64,000 bases of DNA from Centroscyllium fabricii (lineage: Eukaryota): assembly GCA_051313645.2 (NCBI GenBank), contig JBNRSN020000038.1, forward strand, positions 1,984,001-2,048,000. Direction: 5' to 3'. Under the pieces are notes generated by a model. It made no database searches. It saw only the letters and a list, made by a program, of their open reading frames with translations, and was not told where the DNA came from. A program made the position numbers and the translations under genes. Below, piece after piece: positions 1,327 to 49,092 of this stretch (the first letter of the stretch is position 1; each line of letters opens with the position of its first letter).

Positions 1327-1680
1327 CAGGTTGAGCACCATTAATCCGTTACCCGAAAAATCGGCAACTTCAAAAGTCCGGCAATAATTTCCTCGACAGC
1401 CCCACGCATGCGCAGATCATTCACATTGGTCTCTCCGAGCCGATCGCGGGCTGGGCCGGGACTCCCCGATCGCGGGCTGGGACGGGACTCCCCGATCGAG
1501 GGCCGGGACTTGCCGAACGATAAGCGCATGTGCAGACCACTCAAAATGGCTGCCGGCCTTTCGCGGCAGCCATTTTGAATGGTCTGCGCATGCGCTCACC
1601 GAAGCTTCAATCGTTTGGGATTTTCACTTTCCTGGCATGGGCCTGGTCCCGCCTGTGCCGGATTAACGGTGCTCAACCTG
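1327..1680. mobile_element. Tigger/pogo-like MITE (NRF1-motif-rich family), copy 1
   Basis: TIR CAGGTTGAGCACCRTTAATCCG at both ends, TA on both flanks. Confidence 0.88.
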
Positions 1681-2367
1681 TAGTGTTATTACTCCGCATT
1701 TGTGTTGTATGTTCAAATTACTGCTAGATGGCTTTCCATCCAGTTTTATTTGGAGGGGGGCTGGGGTGGAAATTACACAGGGTTTAACATGTCTTTATTT
1801 GGGCAATTTTGCCTCTTTACTGTGCTACAAATGCACAGAATAATATTGGTGTGGGAGCTGTGTAGTATTTCCAGTATGACTTACTTACTTGCTGTCCATA
1901 AAGTTATTGGAGCTGAAACTGACGGCATTGGGGTAAAATAGGATACTGTGACTGAAATGGGGGCAATATTATGGTTTTTAATGTATACTGAGATTTGTTT
2001 TTACTTCTTTAGATTTGTTGCAATCTCTAACACCCAAGCCCCCTCCCTGTATGTCTGTGGCCTGATCTTAACAATGAGATTTGACTTCCTCTCTATCAGT
2101 TGTTTGTTTAAAGTAAGTAAGTATGTAAAATGTTTATTGTCACACCACTGAAAATAAACAATAAATTCAGAAGGTGAAATGCTTACTGCAGTTTCACGCA
2201 CTATATAACAACTAAACAACTACAACTAAACAACAAAGAACAAAGACACACAGCGCGTGAGAACCCACAAGACGTCAAGCCATTTTTCCGGCGCCATCGT
2301 TGAGGGTCCGCATGTGCTCCGGTTCCTAGATTCGACATTATTAAAAAAATCTTCAACCAATTCAATA

Positions 2368-2898
2368 CAGGTTGAGCACCGTTAATCCGCCACGGGCGGG
2401 ACCAGGCCCGTGCCGGGAAATGGAAAAAACCGGGAGAACGAGTTTGGACACTGCGCATGCGCGCCATTCAAAATGGCCGCGCGCATGCGCGCAGCATTGC
2501 GATTGGCTGGCGCGCGCATGCGCAGATCGGGCACGGGTCCGCGTTCCCTCTCCATCGCCTTTCGGGTTGCTGCTGCCGCCGAGCCGGACTCAGGCTGACA
2601 GCTGTTGCCTAGTGACTGTCCGCCTCAGTCACGGGGCTCAGCTGTCGAGAAAATAACGGGCGGCCGTATTGAATTATCTGCGCATGCGCTAACCGTCCGG
2701 TGACGCATGCGCAGATCATTCAAAACACCCGCAGCTGTTTTGAATGATCTGCGCATGCGCTCGGCGCATGCGCAGATCATTCGCTGAAGCCACGATGGGG
2801 GCTGCCATTTTGCGCATGCGCAGTGCAGTCGGGGCAATTTGTGCCGGCAGACTGAAGCTGCCGGCTATTAGGGACACGGATTAACGGTGCTCAACCTG
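2368..2898. mobile_element. Tigger/pogo-like MITE, copy 2
   Basis: Perfect TIR CAGGTTGAGCACCGTTAATCCG, TA TSD; reverse orientation relative to the copies at 13474 and 20804. Confidence 0.9.
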
Positions 2899-3089
2899 TA
2901 TATATAAATATGTTAAAGTTAATCAATGTTTAAGGGAGTCCAGAAGGCGACCCGATCACCGACCATCCATCCGACCGTAGACCACGCAGGCCAAACCAAT
3001 TTCTCAGCTCCTGGATTGAAGAAACTAGTCCCCGACTTCGACCACTGCTCCATGAATGTCCATAGAATCTTCTGGAAGAAAGTGAAGGA

Positions 3090-3850
3090 GTCCACGTACA
3101 GCCAACGGCCCGATGCACGCCCGACAAATTCCTCTTGCTCCCGCATCTCTGGAGCAAAGGGACAACGCCCGACAACGACAACGGCCCGATGAAGGCCCGA
3201 CGACCTCCTCTACCTTCCACACCTCTGGAGAGATGGAACAGCGCTCGACGCCGACCAACGGCCCGATAAGGGCCCGACTACCTCTTCTACCTCCCACACC
3301 ACGTGAACAAGGAGCAGCGCCCGACACCGACCAGCGGCCCGACCCAGGCCGGCGAGATCTTCCTGCTCCCGCACCTCGGGAACAAAGGTGCAGCGCTCGA
3401 CGCCCACCAACGGCCCGACCCAGGCCGCCGAGATCTTCCCGCTCCCGCACCTCAGGAACAAAGGTGCAGCGCTCGACGCCCACCAACGGCCTAACCCAGG
3501 CCGCCGAGATCTTCCTGCTCCCGCACCACGGGAGCAAAGGAGCAGCCCCCGATGTCGATCTTCCTGCTCCCGCACTTCGGGAGCGAAGCACCAGCCCCCG
3601 ACGTCGACCAATGGCCCGACCCAGGCCGCCGAGATCTTCCTGCTCCCGCACCTCGGGAGTGAGGCACCAGCCCCCGACGTCGACCAACGGCCCGACCCAA
3701 GCCGCCGAGATCTTCCTGCTCCCGCACCTCGGGAGCGAAGCACCAGCCCCCGACGTCGACCAACGGCCCGACCCAGGCCGCCGAGATCTTCCTGCTCCCG
3801 CACCTCGGGAGCGAAGAAACAGTGCCCGACGTCGACCAACGGCCAACAGT
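3090..3850. repeat. GC-rich 76-bp minisatellite inside an unclassified repeat (~2915-4190)
   Basis: Unit gacgtcgaccaacggcccgacccaggccgccgagatcttcctgctcccgcacctcgggagcgaagcaccagccccc; starts at 3600, 3676, 3752 and 3828; about 10 copies, more degenerate at the left end. Confidence 0.85.
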
Positions 3851-7332: not shown

Positions 7333-7333
7333 C

Positions 7334-7893
7334 AGAACATAAAGGAGGCCCCTCGAGCCTGCTCTGCCATTCAATAAAATCATGGCTGATCTTCGACCTC
7401 AAATCCACTTTTCCGCCTGAACCCCATATCTCTTGATTCCTTAGAGTCTAAAACTCTCTTGATCTCCGCCTTTAATATACTCAACGACTGAGCTTGCACA
7501 GCTCTCTGGGGTCGAATTCCAAAGAAAATCAACCCTCTGAGTAAAGAAATATTTCCTCGCCTCAGTCCTAAATGGCCTGCCCCTTATGCTGAGACTATGC
7601 CCCCTACCGAGACTCTCCAGCCAGGGGAAACAGACTCTCGGCATCTACCCTGTCAATTCCCCTCAGAATCTTGTATGTTTCAATGAGATCACCTCTCATT
7701 CTTCTAAACTCCAGAGCACATAGGCCTAATCCACTCAATCGCTCCTCGTAGGACAACCCTCTCGTCGTAGAAATCAATCTGTTGACCCTTTGTTGCCCCC
7801 CCCTCAAGACAAGAATATCCTTCCTTGGGTATGGAGACCAAAACTGTACATGGCACTCCAGGTGTGGTCTCGCCAAAGCCCTGTACAGTTGCC
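7334..7893 (-). mobile_element. CR1 LINE 3' fragment
   Basis: LYRALARPHLE..VQFWSP, LEFRRMRGDLIETYKIL on the minus strand. Confidence 0.9.
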
Positions 7894-7895
7894 AT

Positions 7896-8450
7896 GATGT
7901 GGAGCTGCTGGTGTTGGACTGGGGTGGACAAATGTAAGAGGTCACACAACACCATGTTATAGTCCAACAGTTTTATTTTAAATCACAAGCTCTTGGAGCG
8001 CTGCTCCTTCGTCAGGTGAAGTGAAGAGATGCACAGAGGCACAGCATATATAGTCAGAAAACAATGCTAGATGATTACAGGTGATTTTTCTAACTGCCCT
8101 TTATCACACCTCGGCAGAGAGATAATCACCGCAATCATAGGAGTAAATGGTGTCCAAACAGGTCAGTCAGCAAAACATTCCATCAAAGAACAATGAGGTG
8201 GGGTCACGAGGTCAAATATTGCACATGCTGTATGAAAAACAAAAAACAAACAAAGCAATAAACGATAAAATGAAATTAAAATGTTTTGCTGGAAATCATA
8301 GCAGGTCCCGCCGCATCTGTGTAGAGAGAACAAGCCAACGACGACTCGAGTCTGGATGACTCCACGTCAGGTGGGGTTACATGTAGCGTGACATGAACCC
8401 AAGATCCCGGTTGAGACCGTCCTCATGAGTGCGGAACTTGGCTATCAGAA
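7896..8450 (-). mobile_element. Penelope-like element 3' fragment (GIY-YIG ORF end plus pseudo-LTR)
   Basis: Minus strand LIAKFRTHEDGLNRDLGFMSRYM* (~8448-8377), typical of the PLE endonuclease C-terminus; terminal sequence shared with the palindrome at 21149; CTGACGA core at 8009-8015. Confidence 0.75.
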
Positions 8451-10008: not shown

Positions 10009-10486
10009 GATCAATGTGTATCTGAGACCTGGCTGATATTGTATCCACCTGCATAAGGTACTTAATTAACATGTTGGTCTTGCCATGTGCAAAGGAAAAG
10101 TTACTGAGCTGGATCCACCTTGTTGCTTAGAAGTTAGAATTCTAGTTACCCATATCCTGCTGAATAAAGAAAGTTCACACTACTAGCACTTCACACTAGT
10201 AGCAAACAGCATATCCCAACCCAGGACAACTTCTCTTTTGTAGATAATAAACACTATTCCACTATTCAGATGTTACAATATGCCTTAATCATTCACTTAA
10301 ATAGCCAGTGCTGCCATGGCTGATAGTAACCAGAAAGCCAGAACCTGAATGTGAAGATGTTGGCCATCTAGTTCAGTGGGTGAAGAATGAAGCAGTGGTA
10401 GTGTGAATGCGTTTGACACAAGACCAAAATTGTTTCGCTGTAAGAAAATGAAACACTGGACAGAGTCTAATGGAACCCATCAAATA

Positions 10487-11060
10487 CAGGTTGAAGACCG
10501 TTAATCCGTTACCCGAAAAACCGGCAACTTCGAACGTCCGGCAATAATTTCCCCGACTGCCCCGCGCATGCGCAAAATGGCTGCCGCGATTGATGCTTCG
10601 GCGAATGATCTGCGCATGTGCTGCCGAACGGCGAGTGCGTGCGCAGATCATTCACGATGGTCTCTCCGAGCCGATCGCGGGCCAGGACTCCCCGAACGAT
10701 GCTGGTCTGCGACTCCCTGACAGATGCTGGACTGGGACTCCCTGATCGCGGGCCAGGCCGGGACTCCCCGAATGATGCTGGGCCGGGACTCCCCCATTGC
10801 GGGCCGGGCTGGGACTCCCCCCATCGAGGGCCGGGCTGGGACTCCCCCATCAAGGGCCGGGCCGGGACTCCCCCATCGCGGGCCGGGACTGCCTGAACGA
10901 TAAGCGCATGCACAGATCATTCAAAATGGCTGCCGCGAAAGGCCGGCGGCCATTTTGAGTGGTCTGCGAATGCGCTCGCCGACGCTTCAATCGTTCGGGA
11001 TTTTCACTTTGCCGGCACGGGCCTGGTCCCGCCCGTGCCAGATTAACGGTGCTCAACCTG
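10487..11060. mobile_element. Tigger/pogo-like MITE, copy 3 (internal gggccgggactcccc repeats)
   Basis: TA-CAGGTTGAAGACCGTTAATC ... GATTAACGGTGCTCAACCTG-TA. Confidence 0.88.
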
Positions 11061-11086
11061 TAGGAATATTTTTTTTGATTTAAGTA

Positions 11087-11754
11087 CAGGTTGTGCACCG
11101 AAAATCCGTGTCCCGAAAAGCCGGCAGCTTCAGTCTGCTGGCACAAATTGCCCCGATTGCACTGCGCATGCGCAAGATGGCAGCCGCCATCGTGGCTTCG
11201 GCGAATGATCTGTGCATGCGCCGAGCGAATGCGCAGATCATTCAAAACGGCTGCCGGGTGTTTTGAATGATATGCGCATGCGTCGCCGGACGGCCAGCGC
11301 ATGCGCAGATAATTCAATACGGCCGCCGGTTATTATCTCGACAGCTGAGCCCCGTGACTGAGGCGGACAGTCACTAGGCAACAGCTGTCAGCCTGAGTCC
11401 GGCTCGGCGGCAGCAGCAACCCGAAAGGCGATGGAGAGGGAAGGCGGACCTACTGGGCCCGACCCACGCCCGCACAACCCTCCTTCCCCGCCCCCCTGCA
11501 AGACCGGCCTTTCACTGCTGCCCGACAGCCCTAAAAGGCAAACGGAACGCCACACAAACCTGAGCCCCTCAAAATACTTCGCGGCGGCCATTATTGGTTG
11601 ATCTGCGCATGCGCGCGCCAGCCAATCCCAATGTTATGCGCGCGACCATTTTGAATGGTGCGCATGCGCAGTGTCCAACTTCGTTTTCCCGGTTTTTTCA
11701 GTTTCCCGGCACGGGCCTGGTCCTGCCCGTGGCGGATTAATGGTGCACAACCTG
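11087..11754. mobile_element. Tigger/pogo-like MITE, copy 4 (long variant)
   Basis: TA-CAGGTTGTGCACC ... GGTGCACAACCTG-TA. Confidence 0.88.
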
Positions 11755-11893
11755 TACTCTGATGCACCCATCTGCTACATGTGGTTACAAAGTTGAAAGA
11801 ATGTGTATTTCCACTGTTCTTTCCACGTTATATCTTCGTGCCATCTCTTTACAAGTTTCTTAAGGGTGGAGAATCAATGGATTTCATATACCA

Positions 11894-12527
11894 TTGTGCA
11901 CCATTAATCCGCCACGGGCGGGACCAGGCCCGTGCCGGGAAACTGAAAAAACCGGGAGAACGAAGTTGGACACTGCGCATGCGCACCATTCAAAATGGCC
12001 GCGCGCATGCGCACAACATTGGTATTGGCTGGCGCGCGCATGCGCAGATCAACCAATAATGGCCACCGCGAAGTTTTTTGAGGGGCTCAGGCTTGTGTGG
12101 CGTTCCGTTTGCCTTTTAGGGCTGTTGGGCAGCAGTGAAAGGCCGGTCTTGCAGGGGGGGGGGGGAAAGGAGGGTTGTGCTGGCGCGGGTCGGGCCCAGT
12201 AGGTCCGCCTTCCCTCTCCATCGCCTTTCGGGTTGCTGCTGCCGCCGAGCCGGACTCAGGCTGACAGCTGTTGCCTAGTGACTGTCCGCCTCAGTCACGG
12301 GGCTCAGCTGTCGAGAAAATAACCGGCGGCCGTATTGAATTATCTGCGCATGCGCTAGCCGTCCGGCGACGCATGCGCAGATCATTCAAAACACCCAGCA
12401 GCCGTTTTGAATGATCTGCGCATGCGCTCGCCGTTCAGTGGCGCATGCGCAGATCATTCGCCGAAGCCGCGATGGCGGCAGCCATCTTGCGCATGCGCAG
12501 TGCAGTCGGGGCAATTTGTGCCGGCGG
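11894..12527. mobile_element. MITE copy 5, inverted relative to copy 4 and lacking both termini
   Basis: Near reverse complement of ~11135-11750; starts at TTGTGCACC without CAGG. Confidence 0.85.
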
Positions 12528-12589
12528 AAACCATTTGATAATTAATCACTTGAGAGATTGCTAGCTAAAATCAAAGCACATGAAATTGG

Positions 12590-12803
12590 AAAGCAAAATA
12601 CTGCGGATGCTGGAAATCGGAAATAAAAACAGAAAATGTTGGAAATACTCAGCAGGTCAGGCAGCATCTGTGGAGAAAGAAACAGAGTTAACGTTTCAGG
12701 TCGATGACCCTGCGTCAGAACTGGGTCATCGACCTGAAACGTTAACTCTGTTTCTCTTTCCACAGATGCTGCCTGACCTGACTATTTCCAGCATTTTCTG
12801 TTT
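12590..12803. repeat. Penelope-derived palindromic repeat
   Basis: Arms aaacagaaaatg..cagcatctgtgga..gagttaacgtttcaggtcgatgaccc and its reverse complement around a short loop (~12711-12722). Confidence 0.75.
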
Positions 12804-13473
12804 ATACATCACATGAAATTGGAGGTAGGCTTGTGGCATGGTCTGGAAACTGGGGTAATAGTGAATTGAGAGTAAAGGGACGTTCTTTTAGATGCATAAT
12901 CTAAGTACTTTTTTTCTCGAATGGACCCCTACTCACTGTACATATTTCTTATTTTCTCTTCCAATGTGTAGTACCCAATATTTTTACACACTTTCTTAAC
13001 CCATCAGCTTAATTTGTCTTGACTGAGTATTTGTTTATATTGGTCAACTGGCAACAGAACTTGGTGTCATAAGTAAATACAATATGTAGGAGGATACTTG
13101 TAATGTTCACACATGCTGTGTGTGTGGCTGCCAAATAAGTTCCTATAGTGCTTAATTGTCTCCTAGACACACCTTTTTTATGTTTCTCATTGTCTGCTTT
13201 CTGTTGTCAAGCCAGTTTTCAATCCAGCCATTCATTCCATGTATCATTGTTGTCTTGCATTGAGTTCTGATTGCTAGATGCACCTAACTTGGAAATGTAG
13301 GAAACTTCAAAATACAAATATGACAATCCATGTCCACAATTCCCAGAATCCTGTCACTGGAGCAACTAAATTGCAAGGGTAATAAGTCTGACCACTGCCT
13401 TTCAGCCCTACTAAAAGAAACATGCTTGTAAATAACCACCTTGTGTACAACAAAAACTGGTTCTGTTATTGTA

Positions 13474-13994
13474 CAGGTTGTGCACCGAAAATCCGTGTCC
13501 CGAATAGCCGGCAGCTTCAATCTGCCGGCACAAATTGCCCCGACTGCACTGCGCATGCGCAAAATGGCAGCCGCCATCGTGGCTTCAGCGAATGATCTGC
13601 GCATGCGCCGAGCGCATGCGCAGATCATTCAAAACAGCTGCGGGTGTTTTGAATGATCTGCGCATGCGTCACCGGACGGTTAGCGCATGCGCAGATAATT
13701 CAATACGGCCGCCCGTTATTTTTGACAGCTGAGCCCCGTGACTGAGGCGGACAGTCACTAGGCAACAGCTGTCAGCCTGAGTCCCGCTCGGCGGCAGCAG
13801 CAACCCCAAAGGCGATGGAGAGGGACGGCGGACCCGGGCCCGATCTGCGCATGCGCGCACCAGCCAATCGCAATGATGCGCGCGGCCATTTTGAATGGTG
13901 CGCATGCGCAGTGTCCAAACTCGTTCTCCCGGTTTTTTCCATTTCCCGGCACGGGCCTGGTCCCGCCCGTGGCGGATTAATGGTGCACAACCTG
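13474..13994. mobile_element. Tigger/pogo-like MITE, copy 6
   Basis: TA-CAGGTTGTGCACC ... GGTGCACAACCTG-TA. Confidence 0.9.
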
Positions 13995-14327
13995 TATAGC
14001 CAACTAGTGATAGAATTTCTGGATGTTGGCAAACTTGCATCGTTCAGAACGATTGTTTCACCGAGTTGTGGTGTTTGATGGCTAAAGCTTAAACAAGTGG
14101 TTAACTATTTACAAGCATAAAAGAATTGTCAAAGTTTATTATGTATTTCATTTGACAGTTCAAGCCTGGCTTATGGTAATCCAGTGAACCATTTTATAGT
14201 TTTTAGTTTCAAATTCTATCCAAAAATGATTTGATAACCCCCATTAACAGACGTCTCTAGCTTCTATCCTTTTGCACCATTCATGTCTGGTCACCAGTGC
14301 AGGAAACTGATTTGTGCTTTCCCAGTA

Positions 14328-14767
14328 CAGGTACACAACCCTTTATCCGAAAACCTCGGGACCGGGTGGGTCTCGGTTTTCAGATAATTTCGGTTTTTAG
14401 AGTTGGCCCAGTGTGCATGCGCAGATCACATGCTCATGCACATTGACGTGTTTGCGGCCCAGTTCGCAGTCGGGGAACGGCATATCGGCCGTTTATTTCC
14501 TCAGCACGGCATCAACAGCACGAAATCAAGGTAAAATGCACAGATCACATGCGCATGCACATTGGCGTGTTTGTGGCCCAGTTCGCAGTCGGAGAACGGC
14601 ATATCGGCCGTTTATTTCCTCAGCACGGCATCAACAGCACGAAATCAAGGGAAAAACATATTTTTTCTGCTGCAGCTTCAATTTATTTGAGAAAAAAATG
14701 GTTATTTTGGCGCAACTCGGGATGGAGGTTTTTGGAGTTGCGGATAAGGGGTTGTGTATAACCCCTG
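14328..14767. mobile_element. Related Tigger-like MITE with an internal ~119-bp tandem duplication
   Basis: TA-CAGGTACACAACCCTTTATCCG ... CGGATAAGGGGTTGTGTA(taacc)CCTG-TA; duplicated block ~14421-14531 and ~14540-14650. Confidence 0.8.
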
Positions 14768-19453: not shown

Positions 19454-19878
19454 CAGGTTGAGCACTGTTAATCCGTTACCCGAAAAACCAGCAACTTCGA
19501 ACGTCCGACAATAATTTCCCCGACTGCCCTATGCATGCGCAAAATGGCCACCGCGATCGATGCTTCGGTGAATTATCTGCGCATGCACCGCCGAACGGCA
19601 AGCGCATGCACACATCATTCACAATGGCCGAGCCAATCCCAAGCCGAGCCTCCCCGAGCCTGGCTGCTGCGAGCCTCCCCGAGCCTGGCCGCTGCGAGCC
19701 TCCCCGAGCCGGGTCTCCCCGAACGATAAGCGTGTGCGCAGACCGCTCAAAATAGCCGCCGGCCTTTCGCGGTGGCCATTTTGAATGGTCTGCGCTCGCC
19801 AAAGCTTCAATCGTTCGGGATTTTCACTTTCCTGGCACGGGCCTGGTCCCGCCCGTGCCGGATTAACTGCTCAGCCTG
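19454..19878. mobile_element. Tigger/pogo-like MITE, copy 7 (inserted in CR1)
   Basis: TA-CAGGTTGAGCACTGTTAATC ... GATTAACTGCTCAGCCTG-TA. Confidence 0.85.
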
Positions 19879-20803: not shown

Positions 20804-21519
20804 CAGGTTGAGCACCGTTAATCCGTGTCCCGAATACCCGGCAGCTTCAGTCTGCCGGCACAAATTGCCCCGGCTGCACTGCGCATGCGCAAAATGGCAG
20901 CCCCCATCGTGGCTTCAGCGAATGATCTGCGCATGCGCCGAGCGCATGCGCAGATCATTCAAAACAGCTGCGGGTGTTTTGAATGATCTGCGCATGCGTC
21001 ACCGGACGGTTAGCGCATGCGCAGATAATTCAATACGGCCGCCCGTTATTTTCTCGACAGCTGAGCCCCGTGACTGAGGCGGACAGTCACTAGGCAACAG
21101 CTGTCAGCCTGAGTCCCGCTCGGCGGCAGCAGCAACCCCAAAGGCGATAATGCGGAGGTGCCGGTGTTGGACTGGGGTGGACAAATGCAAAAAGTCTCAC
21201 AACACCAGGTTTAAAGTCCAACGTTTTATTTTAAATCACAAGCTTTCGGAGCTCCGAAAGCTTGTGATTTAAAATAAAACGTTGGACTTTAAACCTGGTG
21301 TTGTGTGACTTTTTGCATTTGTCCAAAGGCGATGGAGGGGGACGGCGGACCCGGGCCCGATCTGCGCATGCGCGCGCCAGCGAATCGCAATGCTGCGCGC
21401 ATGCGCGCAGCCATTTTGACTGGCGCGCATGCGCAGTGTCCAAACTCGTTCTCCCGGTTTTTTCCATTTCCCGGCACGGGCCTGGTCCCGCCCGTGCCCG
21501 ATTAACGGTGCTCAACCTG
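20804..21519. mobile_element. Tigger/pogo-like MITE, copy 8, with nested Penelope palindrome
   Basis: Perfect TIRs and TA TSD; nearly identical to copy 6 except for the insertion. Confidence 0.9.
21149..21322. mobile_element. Penelope-derived inverted-repeat insertion
   Basis: Near-perfect palindrome centred on ttcggagctccgaa (~21252); CCAAAGGCGAT duplicated at 21138-21148 and 21323-21333. Confidence 0.8.
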
Positions 21520-28256: not shown

Positions 28257-28779
28257 AAGTGGGGACTCCTCTCCAAGCACTCACACCTCCATGCCACTGC
28301 AGATCCCTCGGTCCGAACCCCACCAGAGCCCACACCCAACTGAGATTGGCGTCTCAACTCCTGCACAGGAGCAGCAGACTGTTGGCGAGCCCTTCACAGG
28401 TTCGCAACCCCAGAGGACGCCCGCCAAAGGTGTCGAGACAGGAGCAGCAAGAAACTGAGTAAGGGGCCTCCACATCTGCTGACGCCACAGGGGCCACGTA
28501 GGAGCACGCGTAAGAGAAAGATACTGCACAAATAGCCACAAGGGTAGTCACTTTGATGTTTTATATTAAAAAGCCATCAAATGATTACTGTAAATACAAA
28601 ATCTGATGGCTAATGCTGTAGTTCTGGTGTGTGTCATTTTGCGATTGGGACTTCCTCATTGAGGGCTTAGGATTACTTGCAATTGTCAGTATGGTGGTCA
28701 AATTACAAGGAATCCGCTGGTTCTTAGCCATTGTCGATGCTTAGGTAAGAAGCTGCGAGGCAAAAGTGCTTGATTGGCT

Positions 28780-30879: not shown

Positions 30880-31622
30880 CAGGTTGAAGTTCGTTAATCC
30901 GGCAGGGTCAGGACCAGGCCCGTGCCGGAATACTGAAAAACCCGAATGAATGAAGCTGCCCCGAGCGCATGCGCGGACCATTCAAAATGGCCACGCGCAT
31001 GCGCAGAACATTCGAAATGCTTGCAGCACGCGCAGACCAGTGCAGGTGGCCGCAGCGCGCAGGTGGAGGCAGAGCACGGGGTGATTTCCGGGTGGAGCAG
31101 TACAACTCCCCACAGCTCGCGGGTGGAACAGATCACACAGTACAGGGGCGATTTCCAGGTGGAGCAGTCCAACTGCCTGCAGTGCGCGGGTGCAACAGAT
31201 CACACAGTACAGGGGCGATTTCCAGGTGGAACAGTCCAACTGCCTGCAGCGCGTGAAACTAGCACTACAGCACAGTCCAACCGTCGGGACACACCCCAGA
31301 AGTTCGGGTGCGGCTGAAGCCATGCCTCCGGGACACGCCCCGGAAGTTCGGGTGCGGCTGAAGCCACGCCGTCGGGACCAGTGTGCATTCGGGAAAGGCC
31401 CCGGGAGGGAGCCCGGTCCAACAGTTCACTGGGCCCGAGCTTCACGTCAGGTACGGGGTTTTTTGTAAAGCGTCGAAGAGCGCCGCTGCGCATGCGCAGG
31501 CCAGTCGGGGATTGCGGATGGTGAGGAGCACCTCTGCGCAGGCGCCGACCACTCGAGGAAATCTGTGCCGGACGTCTGAAGCTGCCAGTTTTTCGGGTGC
31601 CGGATTAACGAACTTCAACCTG
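30880..31622. mobile_element. Tigger/pogo-like MITE, copy 9 (distinct TIR subfamily, internal tandem repeats)
   Basis: Perfect TIR CAGGTTGAAGTTCGTTAATCCGGCA, TA TSD. Confidence 0.9.
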
Positions 31623-33191: not shown

Positions 33192-36100
33192 TGTGGTGAA
33201 CCACTGTTTGTACATAGTTGCCTCTTGCTTGTGTTTATGCATGCCTGAAGCTGACTCCGCCCCCAGCCTACCTGATATAGGCCCAGACTCTGGGAGCTTG
33301 GCCCACTACAAGGAGTTGCCAGTCAGCCTAAGGATGTTCCAGGGTTCTTAGTGAATAAAAGCCTCAGTTGTATTCTCAACTTCGTCTCGAGTATAATTGA
33401 TCGTGCATCAATTTTATTCACTAAAAGTTTCGAGATGGAAGAACTCCTGATGCCATCCACCCTGGAACTCGACCCGAGCGCACCTGAGGCGCCAAGCGGC
33501 TTCTCCCACTGGCTAACTTGTTTCGAGTGATTCCTGACGGCCTCCGCCAACACTGTCCAGACGGACGCCCACAAACTCTCGCTCCTGCAGTCTCGGGTCC
33601 ATCACTGAGTGTTCCAACTCATCAAGGGAGTGACCTCCTACGCATCTGCGATGGCCCTCCTCGCGGAACAGTACGAGCGCCCGACCAACACGGTTTTCGC
33701 CAGGCACCTCCTGCTGACCCACAAACAACGGCCCGGTGAGAGTTTCGCTAGTTTTGTGCGGGCACTGACAGAGCTCAGCAGAGCCTGCAACTGCGAAACG
33801 GCCTCGGCAGATGAGCACAGGGAGCTGCTGGTCTGGGACGCCATTGTCGCGGGCGTACAATCTGATTACACCCGGAAGAGACTGCTGGAACTGAGCAAAC
33901 TGTCCCTGAAGAAGGCCACAGACATCGGACTCTCACTCGAGGGGGCCCATACTCCGATGGGCCCCCTCGAGGGTCCTAGGCCCAACCATCTTCAGCTGTT
34001 TCATCAATGACCTTCCCTCCATCATAAGGTCAGAAGTGGGGATGTTCGCTGATGATTGCACACTGTTCAGCACCATTCGAGACTCGTCAGATACTGACGC
34101 AGTCCGTGTCCATATGCAGCAAGACCCGGACAACATTCAGACTTGGGCTGACAAGTGGCAAGTAACATTCGCACCACACAAGTGCCAGGCAATGACCATC
34201 TCCAACAAGCGAGACTCTAACCATCTCCCCTTGACATTCAATGGCATTATCATCGCTGAATCCCCCACTATCAACATCCTGGGGGTTACCATTGATCGGA
34301 AACTGAACTGGACCAGCCATATAAATACTGTGGCTACAAGAGTAGGCCAGAGGCTGGGAATTCTGCGGCGAGTGTCTCACCTCCTGACTCCCCAAAGTCT
34401 TTCCACCATCTACAAGGCACAAGTCAGGAGTGTAATGGAATACTCTCCACTTGCCTGGATGAGTGCAGCTCCAACAACACTCAAGAAGCTCGACACCATT
34501 CAGGATAAAGGAGGCCGCTTGATTGGCACGCCATCCATCACCTTCAACATTCACTCCCTCCACCACCGGCGCACTGTGGCTGCAGTGTGTACCATCTACA
34601 AGATGCACTGCAGCAACTCGCCAAAGCTCCTTCAACAGCACCTTCCAAACCCGCGACCTCTACCACTAGAAGGACAAGGGCAGCAGACGCATGGGAACAG
34701 CACCACCTACAAGTTCCCCTCCAAGCCACACACCATCCTGACTTGGACCTGTATCGCCGCTCCTTCACTGTTGCTGGGCCAAAATCCTGGAACTCCCTTC
34801 CTAACAACATTGTGGGTGTACCTACACCATACGGACTGCAGCGGTTCAAGAAGGCGGCTCACCACCATCTTCTCAAGGGCAATTAGGGATGGGCACTAAA
34901 TGCAGGCCTAGCCAGCCAGCGACGCCCACATCCCATCAATGAATAATATATATTTTTTTAAATGGAGGCGTACGCACCCAGCCACATGGCCGCCCCGTGG
35001 ACCTTGCGGGAGCCGCCAGCTTGGAACACGCTAGGCCCGACTCCCTACGCCGCGCCACCCTCGCCTCGCCTCACCCCGCGAACGGCCTGACCACTGCGGC
35101 AGTGTCCCGGAGCCAGAAGTGCTATTTCTGTGGCCAAGCAAAGCACTCCAGACAGTGCTGTCCGGCGAAGGACGCTATGTGCACGAGTTGCCAGAAGAAG
35201 GGACACTACGCGAGCGTCTGCAAGCCGTCCCCCAGGCCCAGCAGCGCCGCGTGCGAACTGACCTCGCGGCCATCTTGGACACCCTCCCCACCATGTGCGA
35301 CTCGTGGGCGCCGCCATCTTGTCCGGCGGACCGACCTGGCTCCCCTGCTAGCTGCGATGCGCCACCACTCTCGGTACTGGCCTCCATTACCTTGAACCAG
35401 TACCAGCCCCACCACCTCACGAAGTCCATGATGGATATTAAGGTAAACGGCTGCGCCATGAACTGCCTGTTTGACTCAGGCAGCACGGCAAGTTTTATCC
35501 ACCCCGACACGGTGTTCCGCCACTCGCTCTCCACTCGGCCCATGCACCAGCGCATCTCCCTCGCTTCCAAATCCCAGACCGCGGATGTCAGCGGCTACTG
35601 CGTGGTAACCCTGTCGGTGAAAGGCGCAGTGTACAAGGATTTCAAACTCCAAGTCCTGCCCAATCTCTGCGCTGCCGTCCTCCTGTGGTTAGACTTCCAA
35701 ACCCACCTTAACAGCATTACGATGGCGTACGGGGCCCCCCCCCACTGTCTGCAGCCAGCAGCCCTTAAACCGCGCACTGTCTGCAGCCTCTCGACTCTGA
35801 AGGTCTCTCCTCCCCCACTGCTCGCTAACCTCACCTCAGACTGTTAACCCATAGCCACTAAGAGCAGGAGATACAGTGCTGGGGACAGGGCTTTCATCAA
35901 GTCCGAGGTACAGCGGCTCCTGAAGGAGGGGGTGATTGAGGCTAGCACCAGCCCCTGGAGGGCCCAGGTAGTCGTCGTTAAGACCGGTGAAAAGCACCGA
36001 TTGGTCATCGACTACAGCCAGACCATCAACCGCTTTACGCAGTTGGACGCGTACCCCCTTCCCCGCATATCTGACGTGGTCAATCAGATTGCGCAGTATA

Positions 36101-37520
36101 AGGTGTTCTCCACCATTGACCTGAAATCAGCATATCACCAACTCCCCATCTGCCCCACGGACCGCCGATATACTGTCTTTGAGGCTAACGGCCGCCTCTA
36201 CCACTTTCTCAGGGTTCCCTTCGGGGTCACCAATGGTGTCTCGGTTTTCCAATGGAAGATGGACCGTATGGTTGACCGGCACGGGCTGCTGACCACGTTC
36301 CCGTACCTAGACAACGTCCCCATCTCCGGCCATGACCTGCAGGACCATGACGCCAATCTTGAAAAATTCCTTCGCACGGCCCAACTCCTCAACATCACCT
36401 ATAACAAGGAGAAATGCATGTTCCGCACAACCCGCCTTGCTATTCTTGGCTGTGTCGTGGAAAACGGGGTCATCGGCCCCGACCCAGACCACATGCGCCC
36501 CCTCATGGAACTCCCCCTCCCCCATTGCCAAAAGGCCCTGAGAAGATGCCTGGGCTTCTTTTCCTACTACGCCCAGTGGGTCCCTAACTTTGTGGACAAG
36601 GCCTGCCCGCTCCTTAAGTCTACCTCCTTCCCCCTAACGACAGAGGCCCATCTGGCCTTCAGCCGCATCAAAGGGGACATCGCTAAGCCCACCATGGACG
36701 CGGTGGACGAATCCGCCCCGTTTCAGGTGGAGAGCAATGCGTCCGACTTTGCCCTGGCCGCCACCCTTAACCATGCGGGCAGACCCGTGGCCGCCTTCTC
36801 ACGAACCCGCCAAGGCCCCGAGACTAGATACTCCTCTGTCGAGAAGGAGGCCCAGGCCATAGTGGAAGCTGTGCGCCACTGGAGGCATTACCTGGCCGGT
36901 CAACGGTTTACCCTGCTCACCGACCAGCGCTCAATTGCTTTTATGTTTAGCAACAAGCAGCGGGGTAAAATCAAAAACGACAAGATATTGAGGTGGAGAA
37001 TTGAACTCTCCACCTACAACTACGACATCTTGTATTGGCCCGGGAGGTTCAGCAAGCCCCCAGACGTGCTATCCCGGGGAGAATGCGCCAGCGCGCAGGT
37101 GGATCGACTGTAGTCCCTCCACAATGACCTCTGCCCCAAGGGCCCGACCGCCGACTGCCCCCGTATGGACGAAGACATGGGACCTGCACCGCAGCCGGAG
37201 CTACGATGATCGCAGAGGCGTACCAGACCTCCTGAAAGACTCATGTACACTTGACCTTGTCTCACTTCACCCCGCTGGACTCATTTCTAAAGAAGGGGTG
37301 AATATGTTTGTACATAGTTGCCCCTTGCCTGTGTGTCTACATGCCTGGGCATGCCTGAAGCTGACTCCACCCCCAGCCTACCTGATATGGGCCCAGACTC
37401 TGGGAGCCTGGCCCACTACAAGGAGTTGCCAGTCAGCCTAAGGATGTTCCAGGGTGCTTAGTGAATAAAAGCCTCAGTTGTATTCTCAACTTCGTCACGA
37501 GTATAATTGATCGTGCATCA
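33192..37520 (+). mobile_element. Gypsy LTR retrotransposon 1 (degenerate, integrase deleted)
   Basis: LTRs 33192-33410 and ~37303-37520, 5-bp TSD ATTCC; gag from 33435 with two Zn knuckles; protease LFDSGS; RT/RNase H 35932-37113; PPT agaaggggtgaa. Confidence 0.92.
33972..34960 (+). mobile_element. LINE family B (CR1/L2-group RT) 3' fragment nested in gag
   Basis: FADDCT, WADKWQVTFAP, KAQVRSVMEYS; 3' end gcaattagggatgggc. Confidence 0.85.
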
Positions 37521-39435: not shown

Positions 39436-42400
39436 TGTGGCGACACGCCCACCGGCAGCCACGAAACCGCGCTGGGAAGGCTGCAAAGCGGCCCCGCCCG
39501 TCGGAGGACGCACGGACTTCCCCGACGTGATGACGTCACCAGGTGGCCAGCCGGCAGTGACGTCCCCAGCGGCGGGACCTTTAAATACCTGAGCACCAGG
39601 TGGCTCAGTCTCTTTCTCCCTCTCTGGCCCTAGCTGTAACAAGTAGTTAATAAAAACTCTGCTTTTAACCCCTCTGTGTCCAGCGTGGTCCTTCAGCCTT
39701 GCAGGCCTCAACACTGGTGACCCCGATACCTGAGACGTTTCTCAGGTGAACAATGAAGCAGCCACTGCAGGACTGAGGGCCAAGCTGCCGCAGCCGAATC
39801 GCTACCACCATGCCAGCAGCAAACGACTCAGCACGCCAAGGCAGACGGGGCCAAGTTTACCTCCCGGTCACAACCATACCACAATTCTGGGAGCTCCGTC
39901 CAGCGGCTTGGTTTCGCAACACCGAGAACACCTTCCGCATCCATGGCGTGCACGCAGACGACCGCTACAGCCTGCTCTTCGCAGCCCTCGCACAGTCCAC
40001 CATCGACAGAATGTGGGACAGCATCGAGGAAGACACTTCTGCAGGCAGGTACGAATCGCTAAATGCCGCGCTGCTCGCAAAATTTACCCCAACCATTTTC
40101 GAGCGTGATTGCCAGGTCATTAACCTCCCCGACCTGGGAGATGCAGACCCCACCGACTTGTGGGCCCAGTTCGAGGCGCTCAATCGCGACTCAAGACACC
40201 CTTAAGCGCGCCCTCTACCTCCTTAAGCTGCCGCCCTCCATCAGACCGACACTGACGGTCTTGGAGCACCTCTCAAACAGGCAGCTAGCTCAGGAGGCAG
40301 ACAAGCTCATTAAGGCCGAGCGCACCCGCGCCACCATGCACCGCCACGCTGCCGCTCAACAAGAGCAGCACCAACCACAACCCCGGCCCCAACCCCAACT
40401 CAGAGCCGCGCGGACCCACAAAAAGCCACGCACCGCGGCAACCGGCTGGTGCTACTACCATACCAGGTTTGAGGCCAAAGCGCAGCGCTGCGTTCCGCCC
40501 TGCAACTTCAAACCCCAAACCTGCCCCAGCCCCACCATGTGCGTCGGCCGCTCCGGAGCGCTGCTCTTCGTTACAGACAGTGTCTCAGGCCTCCGTTTCC
40601 TCTGCGACACAGGCGCGCAGCACAGCATCGTGCCAGCCTCCCCCGCAGAATCCAAGCAGGGCACCCAAGGCCCACCACTCGAAGCCGCAAACGGCTCCGA
40701 GATACTCACGTTCGGTACCCGCCAGCTTACCATTAAACTAGCAGGCCACAGGTATACGTGGGACTTCATCACCGCGCAGGTTAACACGCCCCTACTCGGA
40801 GCCGACTTTCTGTGCGCCCACGGGCTCCTTGTCGATGTTACCCGGCGCCGCCTGGTCGACATCCAAATCATGTCGACCATTCCGTGCTCCACAGCCCCAG
40901 CACACCAGACCCACGCGGCAGCTCACTGCCGGGCCCGCAACTCCGACACGTACGCCACGCTGCTCGCCGAGTTCCCCACCCTAACCAACCCCACCTTCAC
41001 AGCCCGCTCCGCCAAGCACGGCGTAGAGCACCACATCACCACCACAGGCCCCCCGGTCCACGCCCACGCACGCAGGCTGGACCCGGCCAAGCTAGAGATC
41101 GCTCGAGCCGAGTTCCACATCATGGAACAGCTCGGCATCATCCGCCGCTCCAGCAGCCCCTGGGCCTCCCCCCTCCACATTGCCCCCAAACCCGATGGCG
41201 GCTGGCGCCCCTGCGGAGACTACCGCCGCCTCAACAACGCCACCACCCCGGATAGGTACCCAGTCCCCCACATCCAGGATTTTTCCGTGAGGCTAGCCGG
41301 CTGCACGGTCTTTTCAAAGATCGACCTGGTACGGGGCTACCACCAAGTTCCAGTGCACCCGGCGGATGTCCCTAAGACAGCCGTCATCACCCCATTCGGC
41401 CTATTTGAATTTCTCCGGATGCCCTTCGGACTCAAAAACGCGGCCCAGGCTTTCCAGCGCCTCATGGACTCAGTCCTCCGGGACCTCCAGTTCACATTCG
41501 TCTATCTCGACGACATCCTGGTGGCCAGCGCCTCCCCCCGGGAACACCTCATCCACCTCAGAACCCTTTTTAAACGCCTGGCCGACCACGGCCTCATATT
41601 AAGCCCCTCCAAGTGCCGATTCGGCCTCGAGGCTATTGACTTCCTCGGCCACCACATCTCCCACACCGGGGCCATACCCCTGCCCTCCAAGGTGCAGGCG
41701 GTCCAGGAATTCCCCCGCCCGCACTCCATCAAGGGGCTGCAGGAATTCCTTGGAATGGTTAATTTTTACAACCGTTTCATCCCCGGCGCAGCCGCCCTCA
41801 TGGCCCCCCTCTACCAGGCCACCCACGGGCAATCCAACAAGACCGCGGTCGAGTGGACGGCCGAAGCCGCCACCGCCTTCACCGCAACCAAAACGGCCCT
41901 TGCCAAAGCCACCCTCCTCAGCCACCCCAGGCCCAACGCCAGAGTAGCCCTCACCACCGACGCCTCCGACCACGCTGTCGGAGCAGTCTTCGAGCAGTGG
42001 TCGGGCGACTCATGGCAACCACTGGCCTTTTTCAGCCGCCGCCTCCGGCCCCCAGAGGTCAAGTACAGCGCCTTCGATAGGGAGCTACTCGCTCTCTACC
42101 TCGCAGTGCGCCACTTCCGCTTCCTTTTAGAGGGCCGCCACTTTACAGCATTTGTGGACCACAAACCATTAGTCTCCGCAATGGCTAAGCTCTCCGAACC
42201 CTGGTCAGCCAGGCAGCAGCGCCAGCTCGCGGCCGTGTCCGAGTTCACGACCGACATCCAGCACATTGCCGGCCGCGACAACGTGGTCGCCGACTGCCTC
42301 TCACGACCCGCCATTCACAAGCCCAACCCCGACCACCCCGCGGGCCCTGCCATCAGCAGCGCAGGCACAACCGGCACCCAAACCGCCGACCACCCCCCAA

Positions 42401-44248
42401 CCCCAGCCACCAACCGCGCCTGCGCACACTGCTGCGCATTCCCAACCACCAACACTGTCCAGACCGCGGTCGACTACGTCAAAATGGCGGCCGACCAACT
42501 CAGCGACCCCGACCTCCTCGACCCCACCAACAAACTTCCCGGACTACTCTTGGCCACCGTAGCACACGGACCCACAGCCACGGCGGTCCGCTGCGACGTC
42601 ACCCTGCCCCAACCCAGGCCCGTGGTGCCCCCCGCGTGGAGGCAGCACATCTTCCAGACCCTCCACGGCCTCTCCCACCCCGGCGTCCGCGCATCCACCA
42701 AGCTCATCTCTGCGCGATTCGTTTGGCGCGGCCTAAAACAAGATGTCCACGCCTGGACCACCTCGTGCAATGCCTGCCAGCGAGCCAAGGTGCACAAACA
42801 CATCAAAGCACCGCTCCAACCAATCGCCATCCCAGCTAGACGCTTCAGCCACGTGCACATCGACCTGGTTGGACCACTACCCCCATCACGTGGACACTCG
42901 TACCTCCTCACAATGGTCGACCGCACCACCCGCTGGCCTGAAGCGGTCCCCCTCAACACGACCACCACCGCCGAACTGGCCAGGGCCTTCATCGCCACCT
43001 GGGTCGCCCGCTTCGGCGTCCCCAACGACATTACTTCAGACAGGGGCCCCCAATTCACTTCAACTCTATGGTCAACCATCGCTCACGACCTTGGGGTAAC
43101 CCTGCACCGAACCACTGCCTACCACCCGCAAGCCAACGGCCTCTGCGAACGGTTCCACCGAACTTTTAAAACATCCCTGCGGGCCAGCCTCCAGGACGCA
43201 ACCTGGACGGACCGCCTGCCCTGGGTAATGCTCGGCCTCCGCACAGCGGCCAAAGAAGATCTACACGCCTCGGCAGCCGAACTCGTTTACGGCCAACCAC
43301 TAACCGTACCAGGCGAGTTCGTCGCAGAAACAAACGAACCCTGGTCGGCCGAGCGCTGCCTCAGGGAATTCAACAACCAGGCAGCAGAATTCAAACCACT
43401 TCCGGTGGCCCGCCACGGTCAACCGGCGACACGCGTCCCCAACACCATTCAGGACGCCAAGTACGTGTTTGTCCGCCATGACTCTCACAAACCACCGCTG
43501 CAGGCACCGTACGACGGGCCATTCAGAGTGCTTCGGGCGGGACCCAAGACTTTTGACATTCAAATGGGCAACAGAACTGAGACCGTATCCATTGACCGGC
43601 TCAAACCAGCACACGTAATGGCGGGCGAGACAACAGTCCCCGCACAACCACCTAAACGCGGCCGCCCTACCGCACCAAAACCCGCCCACACTCCCACACA
43701 GACCAACAAGCAACACATCACACGTGCCGGCCGTACCATCAGGCCACCTAAGCGCCTCGCCTGAGGCGACACGGGCAGAGCATTGACGGCCCGCCACAAC
43801 ACCATCTTTCGAACCACGGAACAGCACACAACACCTGCCGGCCACAACACCAGGCCATTGCGGCAAACTGTCGGACATTCTGTGTGTAATCGAAATGTGT
43901 GTCTGCTCTCTTTTTTGTCTCCCTCCTCTAGGAAACTACACTTCCCCTCGCGGATTCTGGGGGGGAGCTGTGTGGCGACACGCCCACCGGCAGCCACGAA
44001 ACCGCGCTGGGAAGGCTGCAAAGCGGCCCCGCCCGTCGGAGGACGCACGGACTTCCCCGACGTGATGACGTCACCAGGTGGCCAGCCGGCAGTGACGTCC
44101 CCAGCGGCGGGACCTTTAAATACCTGAGCACCAGGTGGCTCAGTCTCTTTCTCCCTCTCTGGCCCTAGCTGTAACAAGTAGTTAATAAAAACTCTGCTTT
44201 TAACCCCTCTGTGTCCAGCGTGGTCCTTCAGCCTTGCAGGCCTCAACA
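39436..44248 (+). mobile_element. CsRn1-clade-like Gypsy LTR retrotransposon 2, very recent
   Basis: 278-bp TG..CA LTRs at 39436-39713 and 43971-44248, no difference seen by eye; TSD CTCT; tRNA-Trp PBS TGGTGACCCCGA; PPT; CHCC knuckle CYYH..C...C. Confidence 0.95.
39810..43764 (+). CDS. Gag-Pol polyprotein of Gypsy 2 (one +1 frame break near 40190-40205)
   Basis: Gag N-terminus 39810-40205; ORF 40063-43764 with CHCC, protease LCDTGA, RT YLDD, RNase H TDAS..ELLA, integrase HHCC/DDE and GPY/F. Confidence 0.9.
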
Positions 44249-44499
44249 CTCTCCCTGTTTGCTAGTTACTTTTTTAAATTGTCAACATTGTTGAAAATTT
44301 CTACGGCTTATCAAAATGGTTCATGCTAAAGAAAGCCAGTAAAAACAAAATGCATTACACTTCCAAGTTTAGATGAGACAAATTGCAAAGCAACAATGTC
44401 GACTGTACAAATGCATTGATCTACCTTGCATAAAATATTAATTACTGCTTTCAAGCTCTTCGGTTGAAGATCTGATTATGTAGTCTGTTGGGGGGCTTA

Positions 44500-47009: not shown

Positions 47010-47115
47010 GCATTGACTTGGTGCCTTTCATGACCCCAAAAATGTCCCAAAGTGCTTTACAGCCAGTGAAATACTTGAGTGTAGTCACTGTTGTAATGTA
47101 GGGAAATGTGGCGGT
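47010..47115 (-). mobile_element. Deu-SINE 3' fragment
   Basis: gtcccaaagtgctttacagcca...gtagtcactgttgtaatgtag, as at 32345-32410. Confidence 0.65.
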
Positions 47116-47234
47116 CAATAGAGGAATGTTTTGACGTGTATTTGGTTTCAATATTTGCACCTTGTTGCTGTACGCTGACCAGATATCTAACTTTAATCAG
47201 TTCCTTATTTTAATTTTTCTTCTCTTGTCTCTAG

Positions 47235-47358
47235 GCCACTGGGGCAGCCAAGGGTTGAAGAGTTTTTCATCCAGAACCCTAGCTGGGAGTTGCCAGTCAC
47301 ACTGGTTTCAGTGTTTACGTTGAGTAGACATTTCCATGTACCTCCTGTAGATAGCATG
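47235..47358 (+). CDS. TMEM131L: TMEM131-like internal coding exon
   Basis: tctcttgtctctAG acceptor, GTGAGT donor; 124 nt completes the split Gln codon (CA|G), then PLGQPRVEEFFIQNPSWELPVTLVSVFTLSRHFHVPPVDSM (NPS...HFHVPP as in TMEM131L). Confidence 0.92.
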
Positions 47359-48618
47359 GTGAGTATCCACAATCCTGCTGACAGAAACTTTCAATTGTCA
47401 GTGTTTTGATGTGAAAATTAATATCCATATTGACAATGCTTACTCATTCATGAACTATTCGTTAACCAAAAAAGTCTAATGATAAATAGTTAAAACTATT
47501 TCTAGATTTGGAAAGTAATATTGAAGGCTTATTGATGAGATTTATATGTAATGGTTTAAAGGAGCTGCTAATTTTTTATTAACTCACTACAGACTGCAGT
47601 TTTTAATTTCAAAATGTCAGTTTAAGGTGAAAGTGTGGCCTATATATGAGTGAATTTATTTTTCTTGTGGGATGAAAACATGCACAGTGTCGACCAGCAT
47701 GGCATCACTTAGCTGCTCTGCTGCTGTTATTGAGAACAGCATTTTGAGCCATTCAATAATTATTGAATAAGTTAAAGGGATGAATAAAGATTGCCGCCTT
47801 CATTCTCCCATACTAAACATGTTTGCTGCTTTGCAGCTTTTGTGGGCCAAAAGTTAGCAGTAGTATAGTTTATTCCTGTTCTTTGGGTCTTCAGTGTCTA
47901 ATTTAAATGCATAGAGGATATATAGCAAGTAAGCATGAAATATTGTTTTATACCATCAGTAGCTTGCAATTTTGTTTTATTCTTTTCAGAGTTGCAAAAT
48001 GGATTCATCTTTTGATTAGTACCTAACATTTTTGCGTACTTTCAAATAGTTTTCAGTGAAGATGGTGCTAGATGTGCCGCATTCCAGTAATACATAATTG
48101 TGATACAAGCCTGTTGTCCTATTTAATGCATGTTGTGAAGCTGTTCATGGACCAGTAACATGGAAATGGTTTAGATGGTCATCCCGCCCCCAACTGAGTT
48201 CCTGATACAATTGCGTAATGCAATTGCCAGGAAGCTTTCTAATGGCTCGTTCGAAGCACTATTGATCGAGGCTTGGGAGCTTCTCCATTGTTCTGTTTGC
48301 AAATATGTGAGGAAGGGAGACCAAGGATCCAATCGTATCCTCACTTGAGGTGCACGTGGGTGCACTTCCCATTAATGGCCAATCAATAGTAATCCGGAGC
48401 AGGTATTTTTCTCTCCCTTCGTCGTCCTGGGATACCCAGATAAAAAAGCTGGTTACTTTCATCGTAAACTGATCCTGGTCTCCTTCCACTGCTTTTTTAA
48501 CCACCGGCTTGGAGTTATACAAGCAAAATCATGGTTGAATTTTTTCCCTTGATAACCTGGCTAAAACTGATATCGATATGAAGAATTGTAGACATGCACG
48601 ACCCAATTAATTGCAATA

Positions 48619-49092
48619 CAGGTCCGACACCGATAATCTGGCACTGGCGGAACCAGGCCGGTGCTGGATTAGTGAAAAATCCGAGCGATTGAAGCTTCGG
48701 CGAGCGCATGCGCTGACCATTCAAAATGGCCGCCGCGAAGGCCGGCGGCCATGTTGAATGGTCTGCACATGCGCTTGCCGAAGCATCAATCGTTCGGGGA
48801 GAGGCCCGGGCATGCGCAGCCAAGCGTGGCGGCCATTTTGCGCATGCACAGCCAAGTGCGACGACCATTTTGCGCATGCGCAGACCAGTCGGGGAGAGGC
48901 CCGGACATGCGCAGCCAAGCGCGACGGCCATTTTGCGCATGCACAGACAAGTCTGGTAGTCGGGGAGAGGCCTGGGCATGCGCAGCCAAGCGCGGCGGCC
49001 ATTTTGCGCATGTGCAGACTAGTTGTCCGGATTCATTCCGGACGACTGAAGTTTGCGGATTACCGGTGTCCGGATTAACGGTGCCGGACCTG
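48619..49092. mobile_element. Tigger/pogo-like MITE, copy 10 (CAGGTCCG TIR subfamily)
   Basis: TA-CAGGTCCGACACCG ... CGGTGCCGGACCTG-TA; internal repeats of gcatgcgcagccaagcg..ggccattttgcgcatg. Confidence 0.85.

Follow-up and report, generated by a model that had tools for sequence, protein, structure and literature searches.

Eleven related elements and their ends

The 64,000-nucleotide (nt) stretch of the Centroscyllium fabricii genome analysed here (contig JBNRSN020000038.1, positions 1,984,001 to 2,048,000; hereafter the window) is repeat-dense animal DNA with a GC content of 48%, an observed/expected (o/e) CpG ratio of 0.59 and 35% of its length repeated within the window. It contains eleven related repeats that are almost certainly high-copy, TA-targeting, non-coding miniature inverted-repeat transposable elements (MITEs) with pogo-type ends, whose individual copies are losing CpGs. 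All ten element starts named in the original prediction, which had been made from the letters of the window, are present, and a diverged relative at 14328-14767 extends the set to eleven. TA-flanked inverted termini had been claimed for nine of the ten, and both were indeed found in nine, although one end of the element at 19454 has a 2-nt deletion; the exception is the element at 11894, in which the outer bases of one end are absent and which stops at about 12528. Counting all eleven, TA stands on both sides of 10. The elements are 354 to 743 base pairs (bp) long, have inverted ends of about 22 bp and occupy 9.5% of the window, and they are as CpG-rich as had been stated (49-64% GC, CpG o/e 0.9-1.16, against 0.59 window-wide). 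They fall into five types: A (2368, 11087, 11894, 13474, 20804; pairwise identity 91-97%), B (1327, 10487, 19454; 83-87%) and the single copies C (30880), D (48619) and E (14328). In the following list the strand takes the GGGACC-bearing end as 5', the presumed parental orientation:

1327..1680, minus strand: MITE of subfamily B, 354 bp, both ends, TA-flanked
2368..2898, plus strand: MITE of subfamily A, short form, 531 bp; contains 7 perfect palindromes and, at 2604, the RFX-like word
10487..11060, minus strand: MITE of subfamily B, 574 bp, with a 25-26-bp tandem repeat inside
11087..11754, minus strand: MITE of subfamily A, long form, 668 bp, its interior enlarged by about 145 bp
11894..12528, plus strand: MITE of subfamily A, long form, both ends truncated, opposite in orientation to 11087
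13474..13994, minus strand: MITE of subfamily A, short form, 521 bp, containing 6 perfect palindromes
14328..14767, plus strand: diverged relative, subfamily E, TA-flanked; has GGGACC at nt 31, a palindrome in decay at nt 86 and an internal duplication of 119 bp
19454..19878, minus strand: MITE of subfamily B, 425 bp; its palindromes are decayed, and one (right) inverted end has a 2-nt deletion
20804..21519, minus strand: MITE of subfamily A, short form; a hairpin insertion (21149-21324) splits it and is accompanied by a target duplication of 9 bp
30880..31622, plus strand: MITE of subfamily C, 743 bp; the interior is unique and includes tandem repeats of 67 bp and 44 bp
48619..49092, plus strand: MITE of subfamily D, 474 bp; inside it the palindrome-plus-YY1-like module is repeated in tandem copies of 71 bp

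Pogo elements mostly produce TA duplications and have inverted ends of at most 40 bp (PMC7386202), and TA duplication together with short inverted ends starting with CAG is what we find here. The first 20 nt match the end of the anole element TcMar-N17 at 13 to 16 of 20 positions in 18 of the 20 ends of the two-ended elements, the other two ends having indels. A GGGACC-like word begins at nt 31 in 7 of 10 elements and at nt 29 in one more, and never occurs at the opposite end; among the autonomous pogo rows listed from Table S1 of Gao et al. 2020 (PMC7386202), which were picked by search terms and counted by eye, GGGACC starts at nt 30-31 of the first end in 5 of 20, and all 4 pogoR rows listed have at least GGGAC there. 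We infer from these ends that the superfamily is pogo and that the GGGACC-bearing end was the 5' (promoter) end of the parent. The earlier label of a Tigger-like MITE thus stands for TA-targeting and for pogo/Tigger-like ends, which do not separate Tigger from pogoR.

With the pogo superfamily, including Tigger and pogoR, the elements share the TA duplication, CAGGT-starting ends of at most 40 bp and GGGACC at about nt 30-31 of one end, but they carry no transposase, no listed row shares their ends beyond short words, and the sole cartilaginous-fish row there has different ends (PMC7386202). The non-autonomous TcMar-N17_AC of the anole, with Tigger4-like ends, resembles them in its ends, its TA duplication, a length of 350-740 bp and the lack of a detected partner; it is, however, old and low-copy (137 copies), and it was compared at the ends (PMC3014272). 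No open reading frame (ORF) of at least 95 amino acids (aa) that overlaps the elements has a Pfam match, and six-frame translations were viewed for 7 of the 11. For cargo, two frames of the subfamily-A interior were compared with proteins: two length-limited searches returned no match, and a full HMMER search gave two weak matches to repetitive, apparently bacterial proteins, which we rejected as summed chance stretches; the interiors of subfamilies B to E were compared with proteins by Pfam only. The pattern of the inverted ends had no match in viral contigs, and seven metagenome loci that match the 22-nt end pattern have neither a palindrome nor a second end and were treated as chance.

Nine of the 20 public sequencing runs listed hold at least one third of the words of 10400-14100, the best four coming from one study that is perhaps the source of the assembly; the eleven runs with word shares of 0.07-0.11 were left out, and one of them, run X10, gave just 56 low-depth contigs. 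The runs used gave DNA-like contigs, and no RNA run is among those listed, which speaks neither for nor against expression. Unique flanks have a depth of 10-40 in run X1 and element bins a depth of 1.3e5-2.3e6, which is summed contig depth and not copy number and is about half the depth of a neighbouring short repeat. In at least 719 contigs of run X1 and at least 695 of run X3, the sequence departs from the element directly behind the inverted end plus TA (11061-11062) and continues into unrelated flanks. With hundreds of distinct flanks after end plus TA, the family is high-copy and TA-specific, and depth brackets its copy number at roughly thousands to 2e5 (allowing up to 31-fold overlap inflation). 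No empty site with a single TA occurs among the 15 of 982 joints listed. The subfamily E element is multi-copy in runs X1, X3 and X6.

A genome-wide burst at about one copy per 6 kb had been proposed. The high copy number stands, but 9 of the 11 copies lie within the first 22 kb of the window (post hoc p=0.002), a density so uneven that it cannot be extrapolated, and pairwise identities of 83-97% together with three more diverged types indicate that the history of the family was probably one of successive waves rather than a single burst. The long-form A copies at 11087 and 11894 are inverted and 140 bp apart, and only 26 bp separate 10487 from 11087; the close spacing in the 11087-12528 region represents local clustering or preferred insertion near own copies. 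The truncated MITE at 11894-12528 is adjoined by a short inverted-repeat element (12585-12806), which is the deepest repeat of the stretch in the public runs and begins after TA in many flanks. The insertion that splits the element at 20804 (21149-21324) is a nearly perfect 148-bp hairpin formed by two inverted copies of a short repeat, possibly a Penelope-type retroelement end; a related copy lies at 7891-7999, and the same junction is found in one contig of run X6. The interior of subfamily C (31033-31535), with its 67-bp and 44-bp repeats, is unique and a candidate for captured DNA, and it contains words that we take to be ETS-like, CRE-like and splice-donor-like.

A palindrome-plus-YY1-like module near the ends

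All 38 perfect copies of the palindrome GCGCATGCGC in the window lie inside the elements and none in the rest, which bears out the predicted motif arrays in part; these had been overstated, as the full 12-mer TGCGCATGCGCA occurs only 10 times. Against 500 dinucleotide shuffles, the control envisaged with the original prediction, perfect GCGCATGCGC is in excess in 9 of 11 elements (p<=0.01) and YY1-like words likewise in 9 of 11 (p<0.05), whereas a strict YY1 pattern is not enriched and CCAAT, the NF-Y word, exceeds the shuffles in 0 of 11 (1.8/kb inside versus 2.2/kb outside). The RFX-like 13-mer is one homologous site common to the 5 subfamily-A copies, and ETS, CRE, USF and BANP words have only 0-2 sites inside the elements. 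The labels YY1, NF-Y and RFX are those which we assume for these words. For GCGCATGCGC, in contrast, the predicted match to NRF1 is exact, this being the consensus best bound by that factor (PMC10810270).

As many as 22 of 24 YY1-like words are located 0, 7 or 9 nt from a palindrome, which argues for duplication of a single palindrome-plus-YY1-like unit and not for four independently gathered motifs. The interior of the elements is one such module, repeated in alternating orientation. The four-factor CpG-island promoter grammar that had been proposed is not supported: NF-Y is not enriched, RFX is reduced to one subfamily-A site, and the YY1 and NRF1 words belong to one module. Long hairpins are predicted for the 3 elements that were folded (z -8, -11 and -14 versus 25 shuffles), and between 7 and 61% of each element is self-inverted.

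The outermost palindrome occupies a fixed position. Measured from the GGGACC end, it starts ungapped at nt 86 in 9 of the 10 two-ended elements (all five types); from the other end it starts at nt 78, again ungapped, in 9 of 10 (four types). One example of the module at each end is given by:

2453..2477, plus strand: GGGACC end, where the YY1-like word follows 7 nt after the palindrome at nt 86
13551..13568, plus strand: other end, palindrome at nt 78, YY1-like word directly after

When one copy each of subfamilies A to D is compared column by column, the palindrome has 18 of its 20 columns invariant and the spacer 53 of 118 (Fisher p=1.6e-4); for the inverted ends the figure is 26 of 44. Palindrome CpGs are kept in 15 of 16 cases, and of the shared spacer CpGs 2 of 12 are kept in all four subfamilies. 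The better conservation of the palindrome relative to the spacer suggests that it matters to the transposing lineage, and a CpG-rich word that decays in the copies yet persists between lineages is most simply explained by selection in master elements. A conserved NRF1-type site at a fixed distance from the ends is what appears to be new here: in the literature searched, with thin coverage of subscription journals and with Dfam and Repbase outside it, neither this family nor NRF1/YY1 sites in pogo MITE ends are described, which does not imply absence from print.

CpG decay and the surrounding repeats

It had also been suggested that the elements may escape methylation, and here three tests speak to the contrary, each with CpG transitions in excess. 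Among the private changes of subfamilies A and B, CpG transitions make up 25/696 and transitions at other C/G positions 17/1300, a 2.7-fold difference (95% confidence interval 1.5-5.1, p=0.0015). Control fragments of long interspersed nuclear elements (LINEs) in the window give 17/154 versus 74/1923, or 2.9-fold (1.7-4.7); in the one test with a control, the CpG excess of the elements thus matches that of neighbouring LINEs. Within the palindromes, of which 66 sites with at most 2 mismatches were found (38 perfect), single-mismatch sites hold 12 transitions at the four CpG positions versus 0 at the four central ones (p=0.0005), and with two-mismatch sites included the counts are 16 and 3. Finally, C/G-to-T/A changes were counted relative to the majority sequence of the family in run X1: 13 of 16 fall at CpG, which accounts for 31% of all C/G (p=6e-5); this count draws on the 36 MITE rows among the 40 listed of 165 (4 rows of a neighbouring short repeat being excluded), from which 4 minority or low-depth rows were dropped and in which 16 rows were other kinds of change.

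The excess of CpG transitions, also within palindromes, argues against methylation escape by the copies and, as an indirect sign for the copies as a group, favours their methylation in the germline. Transposons of the elephant shark are hypermethylated (PMC5437953). Going by the excess of CpG transitions in these small samples, the protected CpGs of a CpG-island promoter are not found in the elements. CpG islands are conventionally defined by a GC content above 50%, a CpG o/e above 0.6 and a length of at least 200 bp. The GC and CpG o/e values of 10 of 11 elements exceed these limits, but so do those of a motif-free Gypsy-type retrotransposon and of a 76-bp tandem array in the same window, young repeats that are equally CpG-rich (o/e 0.89 and 1.03); CpG richness is thus not special to the elements.

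The Gypsy-type retrotransposon (39436-44250) has two 280-bp terminal repeats that are identical throughout and a 1233-aa ORF with reverse transcriptase, RNase H and integrase, and is a very recent insertion. A second, fragmented Gypsy-type element (34943-37438), with protease, reverse transcriptase and RNase H each in different frames, has a 210-bp direct repeat on its flanks (33205, 37305). The GC-rich 76-bp array (3071-3844) has about 10 units, and its CpG transitions are about 9-fold above those at other C/G (5/96 versus 1/168). Another GC-rich region (17915-18805) contains a 130-bp direct repeat (18061, 18660) and 28-29-bp tandem repeats. Pfam matches among the 149 ORFs of at least 95 aa are to LINE reverse transcriptases and endonucleases, to the two Gypsy-type retrotransposons and to Harbinger-type remains; an ALKBH8_N match lies inside a LINE region, and one sub-threshold match was judged to be due to chance. 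A Myb/SANT-like fragment (22798-23259, plus strand) and a DDE_Tnp_4 fragment (28698-29342, minus strand) face each other and probably derive from a single Harbinger element broken up by LINE insertions. The LINE 3' ends in the window presumably resemble those of cartilaginous fish. No clear host gene was detected among the 149 ORFs with Pfam, a search that short exons would escape, and an Rfam scan of the window gave no matches.

Mobilisation, rival explanations and consequences

The explanation which we favour, with a probability of about one half, is that these are pogo-type MITEs in which the end palindrome aids the mobilisation of master copies through NRF1, most other copies being methylated passengers. 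A transposase encoded elsewhere would move the MITEs in trans, by cut-and-paste into TA sites. The module may derive from the subterminal or promoter region of the parent, and fold-back repair or template-switch duplication may have multiplied it into inverted arms. The end palindrome would then bind host NRF1 (with YY1) and keep a few master copies accessible for mobilisation, and the module would be retained by selection on transposition and not for a host function. Most inserted copies would be methylated passengers whose CpG loss reflects germline methylation, and they are probably not working promoters. The step in which binding of NRF1/YY1 favours accessible master copies is tentative, its chances lying slightly below even. 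A stronger version, by which a vertebrate DNA-transposon lineage depends on NRF1/YY1 sites built into its ends, host factors either keeping the master ends unmethylated and open in the germline or bridging the ends, is a conjecture from sequence that we consider rather unlikely.

Several observations weigh against this explanation. The tests of CpG decay are small, and the family-majority count covers only part of its rows. In subfamily A alone the CpG excess reaches p=0.09, with 1 change in 125 CpGs inside palindromes; in a first-pass alignment the excess was 2.7-fold in A (p=0.02), and B together with the D end reached 1.5-fold (p=0.26). Some of the changes within palindromes lie in tandem duplicates, so that they do not count as independent events. 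In the variant spectrum of 2440-2700, 8 of 261 positions exceed 2% of the summed depth and 1 of these is a CpG transition, most being high-frequency subfamily variants, although this spectrum is uninformative and biased against detection because short overlapping consensus contigs inflate the denominator. A 3-fold CpG excess is modest and near that of unmethylated CpGs in mammals. The test of the palindrome's register used one copy per subfamily and a motif picked beforehand. Further blocks of the spacer are also invariant, so that the palindrome may be one of several blocks bound by transposase. An autonomous partner is missing from the window, where 0 of 149 ORFs match a pogo or Tc1 domain of Pfam. 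Moreover, the perfect palindrome has 0 occurrences in the searched text of the pogo table (PMC7386202), which makes it lineage-specific and no general pogo feature.

The palindrome could instead be a subterminal site of the transposase or the core of a structural hairpin, kept by transposase binding or by hairpin self-repair or exchange between subfamilies, with an incidental likeness to NRF1 sites. An end distance fixed without indels, the other invariant spacer blocks and the strong fold-back of the elements would all agree with this, whereas no word is common to the palindrome and the inverted ends in the alignment, and the palindrome is coupled to the word that we presume to be YY1-like. 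Palindromic interiors are also known from Harbinger and Kolobok MITEs of Xenopus (PMC12676858); on the other hand, the palindrome here is the exact NRF1 optimum, and its subfamily C variant GCGCCTGCGC is also a natural NRF1 site (PMC10810270). We regard this alternative as unlikely, but as one to be taken seriously. A neutral origin has been considered as well, in which the module is left over from the parent's promoter or from captured host promoter DNA (Pack-type) and has no present function. The interiors do vary between subfamilies and look promoter-like, Tc1/mariner ends work as promoters (PMC6446368), multicopy Pack-TIRs exist in animals (PMC8277862), and a whale-shark Tigger row has CCAAT- and YY1-like words near its first end as counted by eye (PMC7386202). 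Against this, the palindrome is better conserved across subfamilies than the neighbouring spacer; the two subfamily-A interior frames have no credible protein relative (weak evidence), and the described Tc1/mariner promoters are AT-rich and not CpG-rich (PMC6446368). A functionless relic is improbable in our view. The elements resemble animal Pack-TIRs (PMC8277862) in having shared ends around variable interiors, but host-gene cargo was not identified in the 11 copies.

The idea behind the original prediction was that the bulk of the copies may serve as mobile mini CpG-island promoters or enhancers, or else evade methylation through NRF1. It draws on up to 7 perfect NRF1 sites per element at a CpG o/e of about 1 and on palindromes that are almost intact in the youngest copies; three tandem NRF1 sites serve as a reporter promoter module, and human promoters often repeat one motif (PMC3820735). 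With NRF1-driven CpG-island promoters the elements indeed share the exact, repeated NRF1 consensus, a CpG o/e of about 1 and a GC content of about 60% (PMC10810270, PMC3820735); unlike these, they are mobile, have no detected gene, show decaying CpGs and are not enriched in CCAAT. The excess of CpG transitions includes the palindromes, motif-free young repeats are as CpG-rich, the window has no detected host gene, and heavy methylation has been proposed for recent CGC/GCG-rich repeats in some fish (PMC9842680). For the bulk of the copies this reading is disfavoured, and we hold it to be improbable. In Xenopus, a small minority of MITE copies lies in open chromatin, for instance 47 of 7,230 at liver-specific sites (PMC12676858). 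The enhancer-co-opted hAT-N16, Harbinger-N12A and Kolobok-N2 of that genus are, like the elements described here, vertebrate MITEs with repeated or palindromic interiors and transcription factor motifs, but they belong to different superfamilies, and the evidence there is overlap with the assay for transposase-accessible chromatin (ATAC) for a small minority of copies (PMC12676858). By analogy with Xenopus (PMC12676858), co-option of a minority of copies is possible under every reading.

Orphan pogo-type MITEs are a common kind in vertebrates, and the repeat itself is ordinary. What is of interest is that an NRF1-type site keeps a constant spacing from the ends in five subfamilies, even as its CpGs are being lost from single copies. 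NRF1 is a housekeeping factor whose binding is sensitive to methylation. That the outermost palindrome is conserved and fixed in position lends some weight to the idea that host factors use the motif, and if NRF1 were needed for mobilisation, this would explain how some MITEs come to replicate more than others where the genome is methylated. Multi-NRF1 cassettes in their thousands or more, a minority of which could be co-opted, would confound analyses of motifs, of CpG islands and of reduced-representation methylation data in this genome. Should the lineage truly depend on NRF1/YY1, that dependence would have let a transposase-less element reach a very high copy number, seeding latent NRF1 promoters that would be activated where methylation is lost.

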